Below are positions 4,270-10,743 of a DNA stretch of 64,000 nucleotides, one piece after another (positions within the stretch are counted from its first letter, which is position 1; each line of letters opens with the position of its first letter). Source of the DNA: a virus. The translations under genes were made by a program, and so were the position numbers. Where the stretch lies: the IMG/VR virus record IMGVR_UViG_3300044701_003572, positions 1 to 64,000 of that record; one strand, 5' to 3'. The notes under the pieces are model-generated. The model ran no database searches. It saw only the letters and a list, made by a program, of their open reading frames with translations, and was not told the DNA's origin.

Positions 4270-4680
4270 TCATACCTCCTCGAAAAAATTATTAAACATT
4301 GGATTGGTATACGAATACCTTTTTTTGTGATCTCCAAAAATTTTAGTTTTCTTGTTATGACAATTAGCACATAAAATTTTTAGATTTTCTTTAGAAGAAT
4401 TTAACTTATCTCCGTCGTGATGATCAATAGTTAAACTTTCTGTATGAGGGTCTTTACAGAACCATCCTAGGTAGCCGTGTTTATTTTCACAACCAACAGA
4501 CCGCATCCATTCGTTAACTTCGAAACGTAGTGCAGTTCTGTGGGGTTCACAAAATGTCTTCCATTTCCAAACAGGACTACCATCTAATTTATTACTTCGT
4601 CGATGGTATCCTACTTGATTACAACAATTTGGTAACGCACATTTAGGAGCATGAATTTTAGCTGTTGATTGTGATCGCAT
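4270..4680 (-). CDS. HNH endonuclease (probable homing endonuclease)
   Basis: LTIDHHDGDKLNSSKENLKILCANCHNKKT HNH motif, plus N-terminal Cys residues. Confidence 0.85.
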   Translation of the reverse strand: MRSQSTAKIHAPKCALPNCCNQVGYHRRSNKLDGSPVWKWKTFCEPHRTALRFEVNEWMRSVGCENKHGYLGWFCKDPHTESLTIDHHDGDKLNSSKENLKILCANCHNKKTKIFGDHKKRYSYTNPMFNNFFEEV

Positions 4681-6237
4681 TTATTCTACTTTCAATTTGT
4701 CAAGTTCTTCGTCTTCTCTCTCATCTGAGTAAGCAGATTTTTCTTCTTCGCCTTCTTCGTAGAAGTGTTGATTAAATGTACTCTTAACACCTCCGCGCAG
4801 TCTAGCACCTTCCACACCGTTCAAGAATCCTAGTGTAGTAGCAGTTTCGATCATTTCGAATGCTGCGGTTTTATCTTTACAGGCAAACAATTCTTCTACA
4901 AAGCTGTCAAAGTAAAGAATGTTTCTAGGAACCCAATCACTGATTTCGTCGCTGTAGTCATTGTCTTTGACTTTAGCACGATATGTTCTCCACGGCATTC
5001 TAGGTTTATTTTTTAGCTCGATATCCATTAAGTGATTTGCACGTTGTACCGCAACAATATGACAATACACATTATGACTCATCATCAGTGCATAGGCAAA
5101 TGAATCCCAAGAAGTTTTACCTTCTTTACCGATTTTGTTTAACATTCCTGGTGCATAGTGGCAGATATCAGCGATCGTAAGTCTGCGACCAACTTCGGAT
5201 TCGAAAGGAAAAGGTATATCGTGCCGTCCGGAAAGACTCTTATTATCCGGGGCTTTATCCATGATAACACTCCAGCGTTTAGGGGTATGTTGGGCGTTAG
5301 TGTATACCAATCCGTGAGCTGTTGCGATGAACGGTGATGCACAGTCAAAGGAGATAGTGAAGTTTTCATTGATATGTTTCCTAATTTGTCTCTGAATAGA
5401 CGTTAAGTAACAACTCCAGTCTAATTGTGCAGTACCCAAGAAGTGCATCCAATCTTTACCTTCTAGCATACCGTCAAACTTCATAGTGATAAGACGCTTT
5501 AAGGTTACTGGCATTTTACACATATTGGCACCACCCATAGCCCACCCTTCAGCAGCTTTGTCACCCCATACTGCTTTGTCGCTGAATTCTTTAACACCTT
5601 GATACCAAGCTTCTGCAGTTTCCCAATTAGAACCCTGTAAAACATTTAAAAATTTAGTACCACCATTATCAGAACCGACTCTATTTTCAATAAAGTATTT
5701 GTTATTGAATTGTGTCTTCTCAAGACAATCATCAAAGGTTTTTAAACCTGTTTTTTCAGTATGATTTTTATCACAGGCCCAGGTAGGGACGTCCAACATC
5801 ATTGACCAGTCTGCAGTAACATCTAACCAAGTTAAGATTTTTTCACGGACTTTGTTAGCAGCAGGGCCTTCGAAGTCTTGCCAGTCGAATTTAATAACAC
5901 CCTTACCAATCTGGTATCCACCAGAATCTCCTAAGATCATTGTTTTAGAACGATCTCTAGCCTGTATCATTAGTTCTTGATCAAGACTCTTTTCGATATC
6001 TAATTGTGCATGACCTGCTGAATACAAAGCATTTTTATAATAAAAATATCCTTGTTCTGGATTAAGAAAGTTCATACCTTCGATACCACGGTCAAATCCT
6101 TTAGGAATTCGATCATTAGGTATAAATTCTTCTTTTCGTTGTTTGTCTACATAGGTACTATAGAAAGAACTGATCGCAGGAAGATAAACTGCGTAGTCCT
6201 TTTGTAATGGTGTTAAGTCAACTGGTTGTTTGTTCAT
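4681..6237 (-). CDS. TGT-fold guanine transglycosylase (DpdA-like 7-deazaguanine insertase)
   Basis: TGT motifs in order: DSGGYQ, MMLDVP, NVLQG, GWAMGG, MHFLGT, ISFDCA (nucleophile Asp), SHN. No CxCxxC zinc site. Clustered with folE, a QueD-like gene and replication genes. Confidence 0.85.
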   Translation of the reverse strand: MNKQPVDLTPLQKDYAVYLPAISSFYSTYVDKQRKEEFIPNDRIPKGFDRGIEGMNFLNPEQGYFYYKNALYSAGHAQLDIEKSLDQELMIQARDRSKTMILGDSGGYQIGKGVIKFDWQDFEGPAANKVREKILTWLDVTADWSMMLDVPTWACDKNHTEKTGLKTFDDCLEKTQFNNKYFIENRVGSDNGGTKFLNVLQGSNWETAEAWYQGVKEFSDKAVWGDKAAEGWAMGGANMCKMPVTLKRLITMKFDGMLEGKDWMHFLGTAQLDWSCYLTSIQRQIRKHINENFTISFDCASPFIATAHGLVYTNAQHTPKRWSVIMDKAPDNKSLSGRHDIPFPFESEVGRRLTIADICHYAPGMLNKIGKEGKTSWDSFAYALMMSHNVYCHIVAVQRANHLMDIELKNKPRMPWRTYRAKVKDNDYSDEISDWVPRNILYFDSFVEELFACKDKTAAFEMIETATTLGFLNGVEGARLRGGVKSTFNQHFYEEGEEEKSAYSDEREDEELDKLKVE

Positions 6238-7386: not shown

Positions 7387-10056
7387 TCACTCAAAATCAA
7401 ACAATTTGCTGAATGTGTTATCCGACCTTGTTGAACTGATGTCCCATTCCAAAACACCAATAAGATTTTCTAGCTTTTCGTCGATAACTGTATTTTCCAT
7501 CTCGGCATCGTCAAATGGCAGATCTTTGAACCATTGTGGAAGTCTTAATTCATCTACAGGGTAAGCCACTGATGTATAAGCCATTGGATTATCTTTAATT
7601 TTGCAGACGATAACCTTAGCACCGTCAGTGATATGCATACTATATTTGTCATCCATCATACGCTTTAAAGTATTCCAATTTAGGCTAGCACGAACGTGCC
7701 CAGGCATATTGGCCTTACCGGCTTTCTTTTCTTTGGCAGCATATTCTGTGATATTGTTAGCTCGCTTAGGCGAACCTTTCTCCCAACCAGGGCGTGTTTT
7801 AAATTCTGTACGGAAATCAGTAATGTATCCTAGTACTTCTTCTTTGCTTTGTCCTGTAAGGACTCTTTCTAGAACATTACTTAAGAATTCTTGGATAACA
7901 ACCGGGGTATCTGAACGTTTGAGATCGAGCCCCATAGCTTTGATCTTCCCTGGTTTGCCGTCAACATCTGTCCGTTTTCCTTCTTTGTCGTAGTAAAGTA
8001 CTGCGTATCGTTTCTTTGTAATGAATAGTCCTTTGGAAGCAACAATCTCGCGACCTGCTTTAATGACCTCTCCTCGGGATTTTGGGACATGGAAGGCGTC
8101 TTGCATGAATCTAATGAATGTTCCATTAACAGTTTCTCCTATAGTATCATAAAGTTCAACAACAGATTCCTTAGACCAAGGAATCGTATTCTTCTCAATA
8201 TCCTTCTTCAACGTAGTATACGCTGAGAAGTAACAAGAGTCTGTGTCACCGTATATGATAGATTTTCCAACGTGATCATATTCACCGGTGATAATTTCGT
8301 TAACTTTTGATGCCATATGTTTAGCAATGGCTCTACCAGTAAGAGTTGTGGATTGACCGATTCTATTATCAAAGAATCTACAGCCCGGGTTGAGAATAGC
8401 ACCATACAAGCTGTTCAAGTTAATTTTCTTAACTAGCTGACGCTTATCCCAGTATTCTTCTTCAATTTTGTTTCCTGCGGAAATACATTCTTTAAGTTTA
8501 GCCTGCATTTCTTTACGTTCAGCGTACCAACGCTTGAGCAAACCAGGAATAATACCTTCCTTTTCGTAGGTGAAGATAGTTCCATTTGCTGACAGTATCC
8601 AAGGCTGATTACTTTCAAATATCAAATCGTAGATCTGAGCAGCACTTAGAGTATCATTTTCTCCGTCTTCCCAGTCGATAGTGATTTCTCTTCCTACCTC
8701 ACGATTCATTACTGCGGTATATTCTAGTGATCCGAATACGCCTTCCCACGCCGATGCAAATGATTTTCCTTTAGCCATTTCTGCTTCGATATATGCCTTA
8801 GTTCCATCTGCACGTAGTTGACCTACGATAGTTTCCGGCCCCATATTCAACGCACGAATCGCTGAAGGATACAGCGAGTTAATATCCAACGAACCAATCC
8901 ATTCGTGAATACCTTTTTTAGGATAGGCAACATATGCCCCTGCTGCCTGGGTATTAACACTTTCGTCACGACCGATACGATTAGGCACAATCATACCACG
9001 CTTATGTGCTTCGTTAATAATAGCTTGTTCTGTAACGGCGACCGCACCCATAGTAGTCTGTAATAATACTGTACATTCGTGTGCCAGTGTATTAGCAAGA
9101 TCCATAAACTTTAACTTCTTATCAAGTTTATCTAGCAATGCACAGTCCTGTCTGTTATATTCGATAAACTTTTTAAAATCATTGTTGTAAAGTTGATCCA
9201 ATGTACCTTCATAGACAGTCTTGTTCTCGCCTATCTCCATTTCTCCGATAGCATCGAGTCTGTATGTATGGCGTTCTTCATAGGTGTATTTGCGGTACAA
9301 CTCGAGACTATCTAGATGAACACGACCAACAAGGTCATAAGTAACAGCCGCCTTTCCGTACTTTTCATATTCTCTCTTTTTTGGGAACTGATTCCATAGA
9401 CAAAATCTACGAGTATCTTCTTTGCTTAAAACTTTTGTTACTCTATTGACGGTATAGGGAATATCAAAACCTTCGCTGTTCCATCCCGACAATACATCTG
9501 CATCTTCAATTAGATCTAGGAATGTGTCTAACATATCTGCTTCGTTATCAAACAGCATAGTATTAGGAAATTCTTCAACTTGACGTTTTGCCTCTGCCAT
9601 TGAAATAGTTTTTGGCGGAATTGCCAAACAAACCATAGTGTCCATCCATTGTAAGTGAACAGCGATAGCAGTGATAGGCATAAATGCATCTTCCGGTGAT
9701 GCGTAGCCACGTTCTGGATCAAAGTCCACCTCAATATCGAACCAGGCTACATTTAGCTTAGGTGCATCCGCATTGAGATAGTTATCTTCTAGGCAGCGAT
9801 AGATTGGATTAATATCACTTTCGTATAGTTTTTTATTTGAATGGATTGCAAGTTCTTTCCGTAGTTCTTTTATATTCTTACAGGAAACTCGATTCAACGG
9901 ATCTCCGTGTATAGAAGTAAACTTGCCTTTGGAATCTTTGTAATAAAAAAGGTGTTTGGCAGGATAGTCTTTATAATGCCTATTACCTTTGCTGTCTCGT
10001 TCGACGATACGAATAATATCGTCGTTGCGATCATAGAATGCGTCAACGTAACTCAA
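7387..10056 (-). CDS. family B DNA polymerase (T4 gp43-like)
   Basis: Exonuclease motifs FDIE, GWNSEGFD and YNRQD. Polymerase motifs DINSLYPS, KINLNSLYG, YGDTDS and KKRY. C-terminal KLFDF clamp-binding tail. TTG start. Confidence 0.97.
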   Translation of the reverse strand: MSYVDAFYDRNDDIIRIVERDSKGNRHYKDYPAKHLFYYKDSKGKFTSIHGDPLNRVSCKNIKELRKELAIHSNKKLYESDINPIYRCLEDNYLNADAPKLNVAWFDIEVDFDPERGYASPEDAFMPITAIAVHLQWMDTMVCLAIPPKTISMAEAKRQVEEFPNTMLFDNEADMLDTFLDLIEDADVLSGWNSEGFDIPYTVNRVTKVLSKEDTRRFCLWNQFPKKREYEKYGKAAVTYDLVGRVHLDSLELYRKYTYEERHTYRLDAIGEMEIGENKTVYEGTLDQLYNNDFKKFIEYNRQDCALLDKLDKKLKFMDLANTLAHECTVLLQTTMGAVAVTEQAIINEAHKRGMIVPNRIGRDESVNTQAAGAYVAYPKKGIHEWIGSLDINSLYPSAIRALNMGPETIVGQLRADGTKAYIEAEMAKGKSFASAWEGVFGSLEYTAVMNREVGREITIDWEDGENDTLSAAQIYDLIFESNQPWILSANGTIFTYEKEGIIPGLLKRWYAERKEMQAKLKECISAGNKIEEEYWDKRQLVKKINLNSLYGAILNPGCRFFDNRIGQSTTLTGRAIAKHMASKVNEIITGEYDHVGKSIIYGDTDSCYFSAYTTLKKDIEKNTIPWSKESVVELYDTIGETVNGTFIRFMQDAFHVPKSRGEVIKAGREIVASKGLFITKKRYAVLYYDKEGKRTDVDGKPGKIKAMGLDLKRSDTPVVIQEFLSNVLERVLTGQSKEEVLGYITDFRTEFKTRPGWEKGSPKRANNITEYAAKEKKAGKANMPGHVRASLNWNTLKRMMDDKYSMHITDGAKVIVCKIKDNPMAYTSVAYPVDELRLPQWFKDLPFDDAEMENTVIDEKLENLIGVLEWDISSTRSDNTFSKLFDFE

Positions 10057-10060
10057 TTTT

Positions 10061-10140
10061 TCTCCATATGCGACTTAGGGCTCGCAAATACCAAATGTGC
10101 GGTTTATGGCCACGCCTACCATCTTTTACAGATTTATTTA
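10061..10140 (-). promoter_or_regulatory. polB leader: TAAATA promoter followed by two tandem H-type pseudoknot-like units next to the SD
   Basis: Unit 1 pairs ATGGT/GCCAT and GCG/CGC. Unit 2 pairs GGT/GCC and TGCGA/TCGCA. SD GGAGA follows 3 nt later. Confidence 0.55.
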
Positions 10141-10425
10141 TAACATACGGATTAATCCGACGGTATCTATGGTTACCAATAACAGGTAGTTAGCCAACAT
10201 GCCAAACGATTTCCTAGTATGAGCAGCCCAAGCATACATGGCACAGCCAGCGATCCAAATAGGGTACAAAATAAGTAAAGGTGGATTGGGGACAGTGAGC
10301 GCCATAGTGATGCTACATCCAATCGATATAGCCCATGCGACAATCTCCACCATAAAACGGAACGGGTGACTACGCCAATCATCTCTTATCCATTCTAGTG
10401 TAGGTCTAAATAATTCATTAATCAT
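10138..10425 (-). CDS. small multi-pass membrane protein
   Basis: Three hydrophobic helices. Confidence 0.75.
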   Translation of the reverse strand: MINELFRPTLEWIRDDWRSHPFRFMVEIVAWAISIGCSITMALTVPNPPLLILYPIWIAGCAMYAWAAHTRKSFGMLANYLLLVTIDTVGLIRML

Positions 10426-10692
10426 TTAATCCTTCTCGGGCAAATGTTTAGTAACACCTAAGATCATTTCAATTTCATCCCATTCTTCTTCATGAGATTT
10501 CCAATTATCTTTGTGTGCAATCTTAATTGCCTTATTGATAATACTGGGTTTTACTTGTAGTTCTTCAGCTACTGCTTTAACTGTTTCTTTAAGACCCTCT
10601 TGAAGATCCTCTACTTCTCGTAGAACATTTGAACCTTCATTGATGAGACGTTCTAGTTTAGCTCGTTCTTCAGGACCATACATTTTTGCCAT
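10426..10692 (-). CDS. small helical protein, possibly a T4 DsbA-like dsDNA-binding/transcription factor
   Basis: LKETVKAVAEELQVKPSIINKAIKIAHK pattern. Strong SD and a sigma70 promoter upstream. Confidence 0.55.
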   Translation of the reverse strand: MAKMYGPEERAKLERLINEGSNVLREVEDLQEGLKETVKAVAEELQVKPSIINKAIKIAHKDNWKSHEEEWDEIEMILGVTKHLPEKD

Positions 10693-10714
10693 ATACTATT
10701 CTCCTTATAAGACA

Positions 10715-10743
10715 ATTATATAGTCATAAAAAAAGCCAGTCAA
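10715..10743 (-). promoter_or_regulatory. sigma70-type promoter TTGACT-N17-TATAAT
   Basis: -35 at 10738-10743, -10 at 10715-10720, 17-nt spacer. Confidence 0.8.

Follow-up and report, generated by a model that had tools for sequence, protein, structure and literature searches.

A tandem pseudoknot element conserved at the head of the DNA polymerase operon in uncultured large phages

Organization of the polB leader

The window analyzed in this study is a stretch of 64,000 nt of viral DNA (IMG/VR record IMGVR_UViG_3300044701_003572, positions 1 to 64,000), and the subject is a 54-nt RNA element in the leader of its polB gene. This gene encodes a family-B DNA polymerase of 889 aa with the Pfam domains DNA_pol_B and DNA_pol_B_exo1, occupies positions 7387..10056 on the minus strand and starts with TTG at 10056-10054. 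The start is sound, since an in-frame stop codon at 10077-10075 lies ahead of it with no other start codon between them, and homologous polymerases align from residue 1. A gap of 81 nt on the minus strand separates the TTG from the end of an upstream hydrophobic open reading frame (ORF) of 95 aa (10138..10425, minus strand; stop codon TAA at 10140-10138). The spacer is ordered as TATAAATA, 12 nt, unit 1, ACAU, unit 2, UAU, GGAGA, AAAA and UUG. The TATAAATA box (10135..10142, minus strand) overlaps the stop codon of the 95-aa ORF. GGAGA (10061..10065, minus strand) is the Shine-Dalgarno (SD) sequence, with 3 nt between it and unit 2 and 4 nt between it and the start codon. An initial annotation, made from the sequence alone, had given the letters and coordinates of the leader at 10061-10140 correctly on the minus strand, including the end of unit 2 at 3 nt before GGAGA and the TTG start that follows.

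The whole tandem element (10069..10122, minus strand) is composed of two units of 25 nt each. Unit 1, AUGGUAGGCGUGGCCAUAAACCGCA (10098..10122, minus strand), has a short stem S1 formed by GGU at 10120-10118 and GCC at 10110-10108, loops L1 (AG, 10117-10116) and L3 (AUAAA, 10107-10103), and a hairpin with the 5' strand GCG(U)G at 10115-10111, in which U10112 is bulged, and the 3' strand CCGC at 10102-10099. Unit 2, UGGUAUUUGCGAGCCCUAAGUCGCA (10069..10093, minus strand), has S1 formed by GGU at 10092-10090 and GCC at 10081-10079, loops L1 (AUU, 10089-10087) and L3 (CUAAG, 10078-10074), and a hairpin of UGCGA (10086-10082) and UCGCA (10073-10069). The general unit can be described as GGU, L1 of 1-3 nt, a stem strand of 4-5 nt, GCC, L3 of 5-6 nt with an invariant AA, and the closing strand. 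No nucleotide separates the first stem strand from GCC, so that each unit conforms to a classical compact H-type pseudoknot, and loops of such lengths are able to span the stems of such a pseudoknot.

Unit 2 is retained as it was first drawn, with UGCGA:UCGCA (5 bp, 8-nt loop) plus GGU:GCC, and the drawing of unit 1 has to be revised in both helices. The AUGGU:GCCAU stem proposed for it is conserved only in the 3 bp of GGU:GCC. The extra A-U and U-A pairs are not kept in relatives, where position -1 is an A opposite the invariant loop A in 67 of 99 rows, and the 5-bp extension of S1 was rejected. Its second helix, proposed as GCG:CGC (3 bp), is instead GCG(U)G:CCGC, which has 4 bp with U10112 bulged and is homologous to perfect stems of 4-5 bp in relatives.

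The similarity of the two units, already pointed out in the initial annotation, is borne out by their alignment score, which was reached by none of 2000 shuffles. The predicted hairpin energies are -3.7 kcal/mol for unit 1 and -6.2 kcal/mol for unit 2. The minimum free energy (MFE) of the leader as a single sequence is no better than that of shuffles (z = 0.20), the MFE fold does not contain the conserved helices, and the two units were not called by Tandem Repeats Finder (TRF) or by the repeat finder. The single-sequence fold is thus average for its composition; the window alone cannot show structure beyond chance, and support for the structure comes from relatives.

Distribution of the element in related phages

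Three sets of related loci, here given three-digit designations such as L176, were collected. Comparison of the window polB with IMG/VR gave at least 598 matching stretches, from which the best 80 (86-99% aa identity) were used. Both units precede polB in all of these 80 best loci out of at least 598, in 53 distinct versions. The second set is pattern-based: a scan with the unit-2 consensus gave at least 120 stretches and 116 new loci, with the inner stem fully complementary in 109. All complementary-stem loci except L113 show the same leader context, and the seven loci with a broken stem lie in unrelated contexts. For the third set, the polB of L176, 71% identical to that of the window, served as the query, and the motif was not used in collecting the set. 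Its 42 distinct leaders comprise 26 with the tandem element, 15 with one unit abutting the SD, and one (L276) with none. Taken over these sets, conservation and compensatory change extend to more than 150 distinct leaders.

The carriers form a globally distributed group of uncultured large, jumbo-type phages of freshwater and marine origin, with contigs up to 372 kb. The stretch of the window itself is present in 17 DNA runs labelled as freshwater, lake-water or fungus metagenome. Three RNA-labelled runs contain small shares of the stretch; their contigs gave only scattered pieces, one of them exact at 9761-9927, and nothing over 9940-10159, and contigs cannot show transcript ends or expression. 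The closest polymerases from cultured phages are those of Sinorhizobium phage Phosso (51%), Agrobacterium phage Atu_ph07 (47%) and jumbo phages of the 121Q and RaK2 type (about 43%). The motif was not found on reading the polB leaders of Phosso, Atu_ph07, Vibrio phage 2.275.O and 121Q, whose polymerases are 43-51% identical to that of the window. A blastn search of the leader region against cultured phages gave no match, and the same search with an 86-nt leader of a relative gave only two matches, both at chance level.

The initial annotation had proposed a search of Rfam, and no family was matched. Over the element, Rfam 15 gave no match at E up to 10 for window positions 9500-10700 or at E up to 1 for ten related loci, and its covariance models of preQ1-I/II/III, SAM-II/V and guanidine-II/III did not match the element. 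A literature search, limited in depth, found no description of the motif. The element is a new and unnamed RNA motif; it is the tandem-pseudoknot architecture that is new, while operators in the leaders of replication genes are already known.

Specificity for the head of the polB operon

A covariance model, R1, was built from an alignment (A2) of 28 gap-free tandem leaders, and it matches the element of the window with 46.6 bits and E of about 1e-9. Searching the window and 99 loci (910 kb) with R1 gave exactly one strong match per source, always in the polB leader. In the homology-only set (634 kb), strong matches were found in 79 of 95 sources, which are all the tandem leaders; seven single-unit leaders gave weak matches and nine sources had none at E up to 1. 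The tandem element is the sole R1 match in the 64-kb window. A descriptor search of the 86-kb contig to which the window belongs found unit 2 only, against 0.03 matches per shuffle. No other copy of the motif was found outside polB leaders in this contig and in 1.63 Mb of related loci.

Several candidates for further copies were rejected. A relaxed descriptor gave 26 matches outside the leader in the 1.63 Mb, which appear to be coding sequence judging by their flanks alone, several of them within polB. A second R1 match in L149 (6550-6609, minus strand; 20.7 bits, E 0.009), located 44 nt before the clamp-like gene, was attributed to chance as its stems pair poorly, and its counterpart in the window, the spacer at 7386-7327, contains no motif. 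Among 120 listed matches of the unit-2 pattern in prokaryote genomes, three have a complementary stem and none lies in a leader context, which is at chance level.

A total of 159 distinct unit-2 contexts were inspected, and 152 of them continue with an SD and a polB-type start codon (106 ATG and 46 TTG). The distance from unit 2 to the SD core in these contexts is 0-6 nt, most often 2. The remaining seven are L113, which is a chance match, four loci with a short Cys-rich ORF, L194 and L200. The Cys-rich ORFs encode 53-63 aa (e.g. MEEFNTCTECIRPEVCTVRCECS...) and are located on the minus strand at L097:4839-4997, L105:4646-4816, L106:2045-2227 and L130:409-597. The one from L105, which was tested, has no Pfam or PHROG match, and no GGAG follows the motif in L105, L106 and L130. 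The inserted 204-aa ORF of L194 (2820-3431, minus strand) matches a PHROG labelled ferrochelatase, in the auxiliary metabolic gene class.

Unit 1 is replaced in some leaders. In L127 (95-168, minus strand), unit 2 alone precedes polB, and in place of unit 1 there is a terminator-like hairpin followed by seven T in a row. In a single-unit clade, the place of unit 1, about 70 nt before polB, is taken by a variable GC-rich hairpin (GCC...GGC) and a conserved GCAUGUAGA, and the 3' strand of the remaining unit runs directly into the SD, as in CAACGAGGAG. Members of this clade are L233, L239, L240, L246, L254, L256, L257, L261, L263, L267, L269, L271, L274, L275 and L280. Because unit 1 is replaced in L127 and in this clade, the SD-proximal unit, unit 2, is regarded as the core of the element.

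Covariation and support for the helices

The alignment of related polB leaders suggested in the initial annotation reveals compensatory changes, and the pairings as revised above are conserved in homologues. Three alignments besides A2 were used: A1 is a plain MAFFT alignment, A3 rests partly on pattern-selected loci, and A4 is confined to loci found by homology. The invariance of unit 2 in A3 is a consequence of selection, since part of its loci were chosen by the unit-2 pattern. A3 as well as A4 was fitted to the hairpins of the model, and each hence leans towards them. For the two hairpins and two pseudoknot stems, 95.9% of the cells in A4 are paired against 79.0% in shuffles, and none of 500 shuffles is as high. 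The covariation score of A4 is 0.394 against 0.123 in shuffles. When the partners are slid by 1-3 columns, pairing falls to 28-46%. A3 agrees with A4 on both pairing and covariation. A1 is free of this model bias, and from it RNAalifold predicts both the hairpin of unit 2 and, in unit 1, the GGU:GCC stem.

The hairpin of unit 2 is paired in 100% of the cells in A4, shows double changes at four of five pairs and occurs in 16 distinct stem versions. Double changes were found at all five pairs of the unit-1 hairpin. Its 87% pairing is an underestimate, because the model unevenly aligns the one-base bulge of the window-type stem. The S1 columns of unit 1 read GC in 71 and AU in 7 rows at one pair, and UG in 73 and CG in 5 at another. 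Every unit in 202 candidate leaders was further parsed for the S1 triplet and the start of the loop, which gave GGU/GCC 275 times, GGC/GCC 18 times and AGU/GCU in 7 distinct leaders. The mismatched combinations AGU/GCC and GGU/GCU were never found in these 202 leaders.

The AGU/GCU leaders are those of L042 (polB 89% identical to that of the window), L116 (77%), and L203, L204, L208, L211 and L217 from the set fetched with the L176 polB; GGU/GCC is kept in near-identical neighbors, L185 for L042 and L137 for L116. The seven leaders are counted here as about three events. S1 of L176 itself is AGC/GCU. Pairing across the units, with GGU of one joined to GCC of the other, was considered and rejected: AGU and GCU of unit 1 change jointly while unit 2 keeps GGU and GCC, so that the pairing of S1 is internal to a unit. 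Only the sense strand of polB is compatible with the U·G wobble of S1 and the G·U pairs of the hairpins.

Unit 1 is therefore an H-type pseudoknot in which both interleaved helices are backed by compensatory change. S1 of unit 2 is invariant (72 of 72) and, as it never varies, is neither supported nor contradicted. Of the two interleaved helices per unit first suggested, both hairpins and S1 of unit 1 are thus supported by covariation, and S1 of unit 2 is conserved without variation. The AA of the loop is invariant in 100 of 100 rows that have a letter there. The 8-nt loops read GCCA(U/C)AA(A/G/U) in unit 1 and GCCNNAA(A/G) in unit 2. The L1 linker varies across units and clades, with AUU, AUA, UUU, GUA, A, U, AG and others.

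A candidate translational operator

Based on these observations and on analogy with known phage operators, we tentatively favor reading the element as a translational operator that is bound by a protein and is probably autogenous, as are the gp43 operators of phages T4, RB69 and RB49. The 54-nt RNA would act in cis in the 5' leader of the polB mRNA, folded into two compact H-type pseudoknots. In each of them, the 3-bp GGU:GCC stem would be interleaved with the variable stem of 4-5 bp, and the A-rich loop of 5-6 nt would cross the short stem. A protein, most likely DNA polymerase in excess over its DNA substrate, would bind the folded units. When bound at unit 2, 0-6 nt before the SD, it would deny the 30S subunit access to the ribosome-binding site (RBS), and unit 1 might add affinity or cooperativity. 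What is observed directly is the structure of the element, its conservation, and that it is found nowhere but at the start of the polB operon; from these observations we infer protein binding, polB as the protein that binds, and repression as the effect.

The window polymerase and T4 gp43 align with 27% identity over 691 residues (BLASTP, E 6e-62), and on this similarity the polymerase is assigned as a gp43 homologue. According to PMC3014915, translation of T4 gp43 is repressed by gp43 itself, which binds a hairpin operator together with the RBS. The operator loops given there are UAAC in T4 and RB69, CAAC in a variant obtained by systematic evolution of ligands by exponential enrichment (SELEX), and UAAA in RB49, and the AC or AA bases of the loop matter most. 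We read the T4 leader as AGCCU-AAUAACUC-GGGCU followed by AUAAAC and the SD, the RB69 leader as AGAC-AAUAACUC-GUCU, and the RB49 leader as a 6-bp stem with its 3' strand forming the SD and UAAA in the loop. The three operators overlap the SD or immediately precede it and have stems of 4-6 bp with loops of 6-8 nt; the operator is 18 nt long in T4 and 16 nt in RB69. The element likewise lies in the leader of a family-B polymerase gene and adjoins the SD, the polymerases are homologous, and its hairpins are similarly small, with stems of 4-5 bp and 8-nt loops containing (U/C)AA followed by A or G. It differs in having two units where the gp43 operators have one, and in that the first three bases of the loop pair with the upstream GGU into a pseudoknot. 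The operator reading appears the best one because of these gp43-like hairpins at the same place before a homologous gene, together with the strict specificity for polB. The weak TTG start in 46 of the 152 contexts is also counted in its favor.

Several points weigh against it. The SD lies outside the helices, at 0-6 nt from unit 2. Of the 158 real contexts, six have an ORF that separates the motif from polB. In the four loci with a Cys-rich ORF, the end of the insert meets the start of polB, and in L194 (204-aa ORF) and L200 (76-aa ORF plus about 550 nt) the insert is not coupled to polB. These insertions fit an element of the operon leader better than one strictly of the polB RBS. The invariant G-C-rich short stem and the loop AA can be explained by the stability of the pseudoknot alone. 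The likeness to the gp43 operators is restricted to geometry and the loop tetranucleotide, between polymerases that are 27% identical, and UAA occupies loop positions 5-7 in the element and 3-5 in the gp43 operators. No cultured phage was found with a polB more than 51% identical to that of the window. According to the same review, PMC3014915, the T4 operator is not known as a pseudoknot, and some T4-related polymerases do not autoregulate.

The other known phage precedent is the leader of gene 32 in T4 and T2, which shares with the element an H-type pseudoknot in front of a replication gene; this pseudoknot is the nucleation site of a translational repressor (PMC3014915). It is positioned far upstream, ahead of a long A/U-rich stretch that has no structure and is coated by the protein, whereas the pseudoknots of the element abut the SD, are duplicated and precede another gene.

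Alternative explanations

A structural role of the RNA without any ligand is rather unlikely in our view. As two very stable, compact pseudoknots located close to or at the 5' end of the mRNA, such an element might protect it from 5'-end-dependent decay, or fix ribosome loading at a low level as a standby site or steric brake by the SD. The letters that are invariant outside the variable stems are just those needed by a stable H-type pseudoknot, namely a G-C-rich short stem and loop adenines, which would lie in the minor groove of the short stem. An A is found two bases before GGU in 134 of 138 relatives, and AT-rich boxes resembling TAAATA or TATAAT are present upstream in many of them, at variable distance from unit 1, so that the RNA may start at unit 1. 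Perfect TTGACA-17-TATAAT promoters just upstream of the single-unit leader in L280 and L240 point in the same direction, and an ORF inserted before polB does not displace the element from the head of the operon. However, a purely structural role leaves unexplained why the motif occurs at polB only, over 86 kb of its own contig and about 1.6 Mb of related DNA, and why the stems have drifted but the loop letters have not. Chance similarity without function in an AT-rich spacer would agree with the average single-sequence fold and the lack of a called repeat, but it is contradicted by conservation and compensatory change in more than 150 distinct leaders and is scarcely credible.

The initial annotation had offered a tandem aptamer as one of its readings. 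In this case each pseudoknot would bind a nucleotide, a deoxynucleoside triphosphate (dNTP) or a 7-deazaguanine precursor, the ligand would stabilize the fold beside the SD, and the element would represent a new, phage-only riboswitch class which senses a metabolite of the nucleotide pool or of the 7-deazapurine pathway and sets the translation of an operon for polB, a clamp and a putative DNA transglycosylase. We consider this unlikely. Small H-type pseudoknot aptamers of 25-35 nt with an A-rich third loop are known in preQ1-I, SAM-II, SAM-V and preQ1-II, located by the SD and sometimes in tandem, and the element recalls them in its size, compact H-type topology, A-rich third loop, closeness to the SD and tandem layout. 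The genes of the operon are suggestive as well: polB, a clamp-like ORF and a 518-aa ORF with a possible link to the TGT family stay together in all 41 loci compared, and a folE gene lies downstream. In contrast to the preQ1-I type, the element has its stem lengths in inverse order (3 bp followed by 5 bp), lacks an L2 that could hold a base pairing with the ligand and leaves the SD outside the helices, and it is confined to phages and to polB. No positive evidence for an aptamer was obtained: the loop AA is the sole invariant part that is not in a helix, L1 differs in length and letters between units and clades, and with L2 of zero length few unpaired conserved positions are left for a pocket. 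Furthermore, Rfam has no match, the SD takes part in no alternative pairing, a single type of gene is served, and no instance was found in prokaryote genomes among the matches listed. The guanidine-II (mini-ykkC) riboswitch consists of tandem small hairpins with covarying stems and fixed loop letters in an ACGR tetraloop. It resembles the element in having two small hairpins with a short variable linker just before the SD, but the element has an 8-nt GCC..AA loop in place of the tetraloop, and this loop pairs with its own 5' flank, as seen for AGU:GCU in unit 1, and not with the other loop. It is quite unlikely that the element is an operator for another RNA-binding protein. Such a protein would be a RegA-like translational repressor of the phage or a factor of the host, and might read both units as a dimer. 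Two similar units about 29 nt apart would suit a dimeric or cooperative binder, and T4-type phages encode general translational repressors, but RegA sites are described as unstructured (both PMC3014915). A general repressor would be expected to have several targets, and no second copy was found in the contig or in related loci; in addition, a single unit suffices in L127 and in one clade.

To our knowledge, only a handful of T-even-type coliphages are known to control the translation of their replicative DNA polymerase autogenously, and no structure of a gp43-operator RNA-protein complex exists. The element is compact and sharply defined, measuring 54 nt as a whole and about 25 nt as a single unit, and comes with abundant natural covariation. 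If it is bound by the polymerase, polymerase autoregulation would be old and widespread in the gp43 lineage, and the element would offer a better-behaved RNA for structural work. With a small molecule as its ligand, it would form a new class of riboswitch controlling replication, by which replication would be coupled to the supply of normal or modified bases. In either case it provides a new family for RNA databases and a marker of the start of the polB operon in metagenomes.

Neighboring genes and promoter-like sequences

The operon had been described as polB-clamp-dpdA. All 41 loci that have 4.5 kb or more of sequence downstream show the order polB, a clamp-like ORF of 245 aa and an ORF of 518 aa, and the dpdA label of the third gene could not be verified with Pfam or PDB sequences. 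The 245-aa ORF belongs to phrog_12062, and the syntenic gene of Phosso is annotated as sliding clamp. The 518-aa ORF (4681-6237, minus strand), downstream of the clamp-like gene, has no Pfam or PDB sequence match. An Atlas lead connects it to a cluster with the TGT family in 17% of members, by which a DpdA/TGT identity is not confirmed. An HNH gene (4270-4680) and folE, encoding FolE (336-1172), are also found downstream of polB.

On the upstream side, the 95-aa ORF has no family match, and homologues were found by tblastn in 134 related loci. It is preceded by an 88-aa ORF (10692-10426, minus strand) matching Pfam Phage_DsbA and a PHROG transcriptional regulator. A sigma-70-type promoter, TTGACT-17-TATAAT with 11 of 12 consensus letters, is located upstream of this ORF at 10715-10743 on the minus strand, and may drive a transcript of dsbA, the 95-aa ORF and polB. 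The TATAAATA box has the letters of what we take to be the T4-type late promoter consensus, and its role as a late promoter is a lead only, as the box is rare and its spacing to unit 1 is not constant in relatives. It occurs in two copies only on both strands of the 86,378-base contig (38% G+C), one of them at the stop codon before the motif. About 15 copies would be expected in the contig by a hand estimate from base composition.

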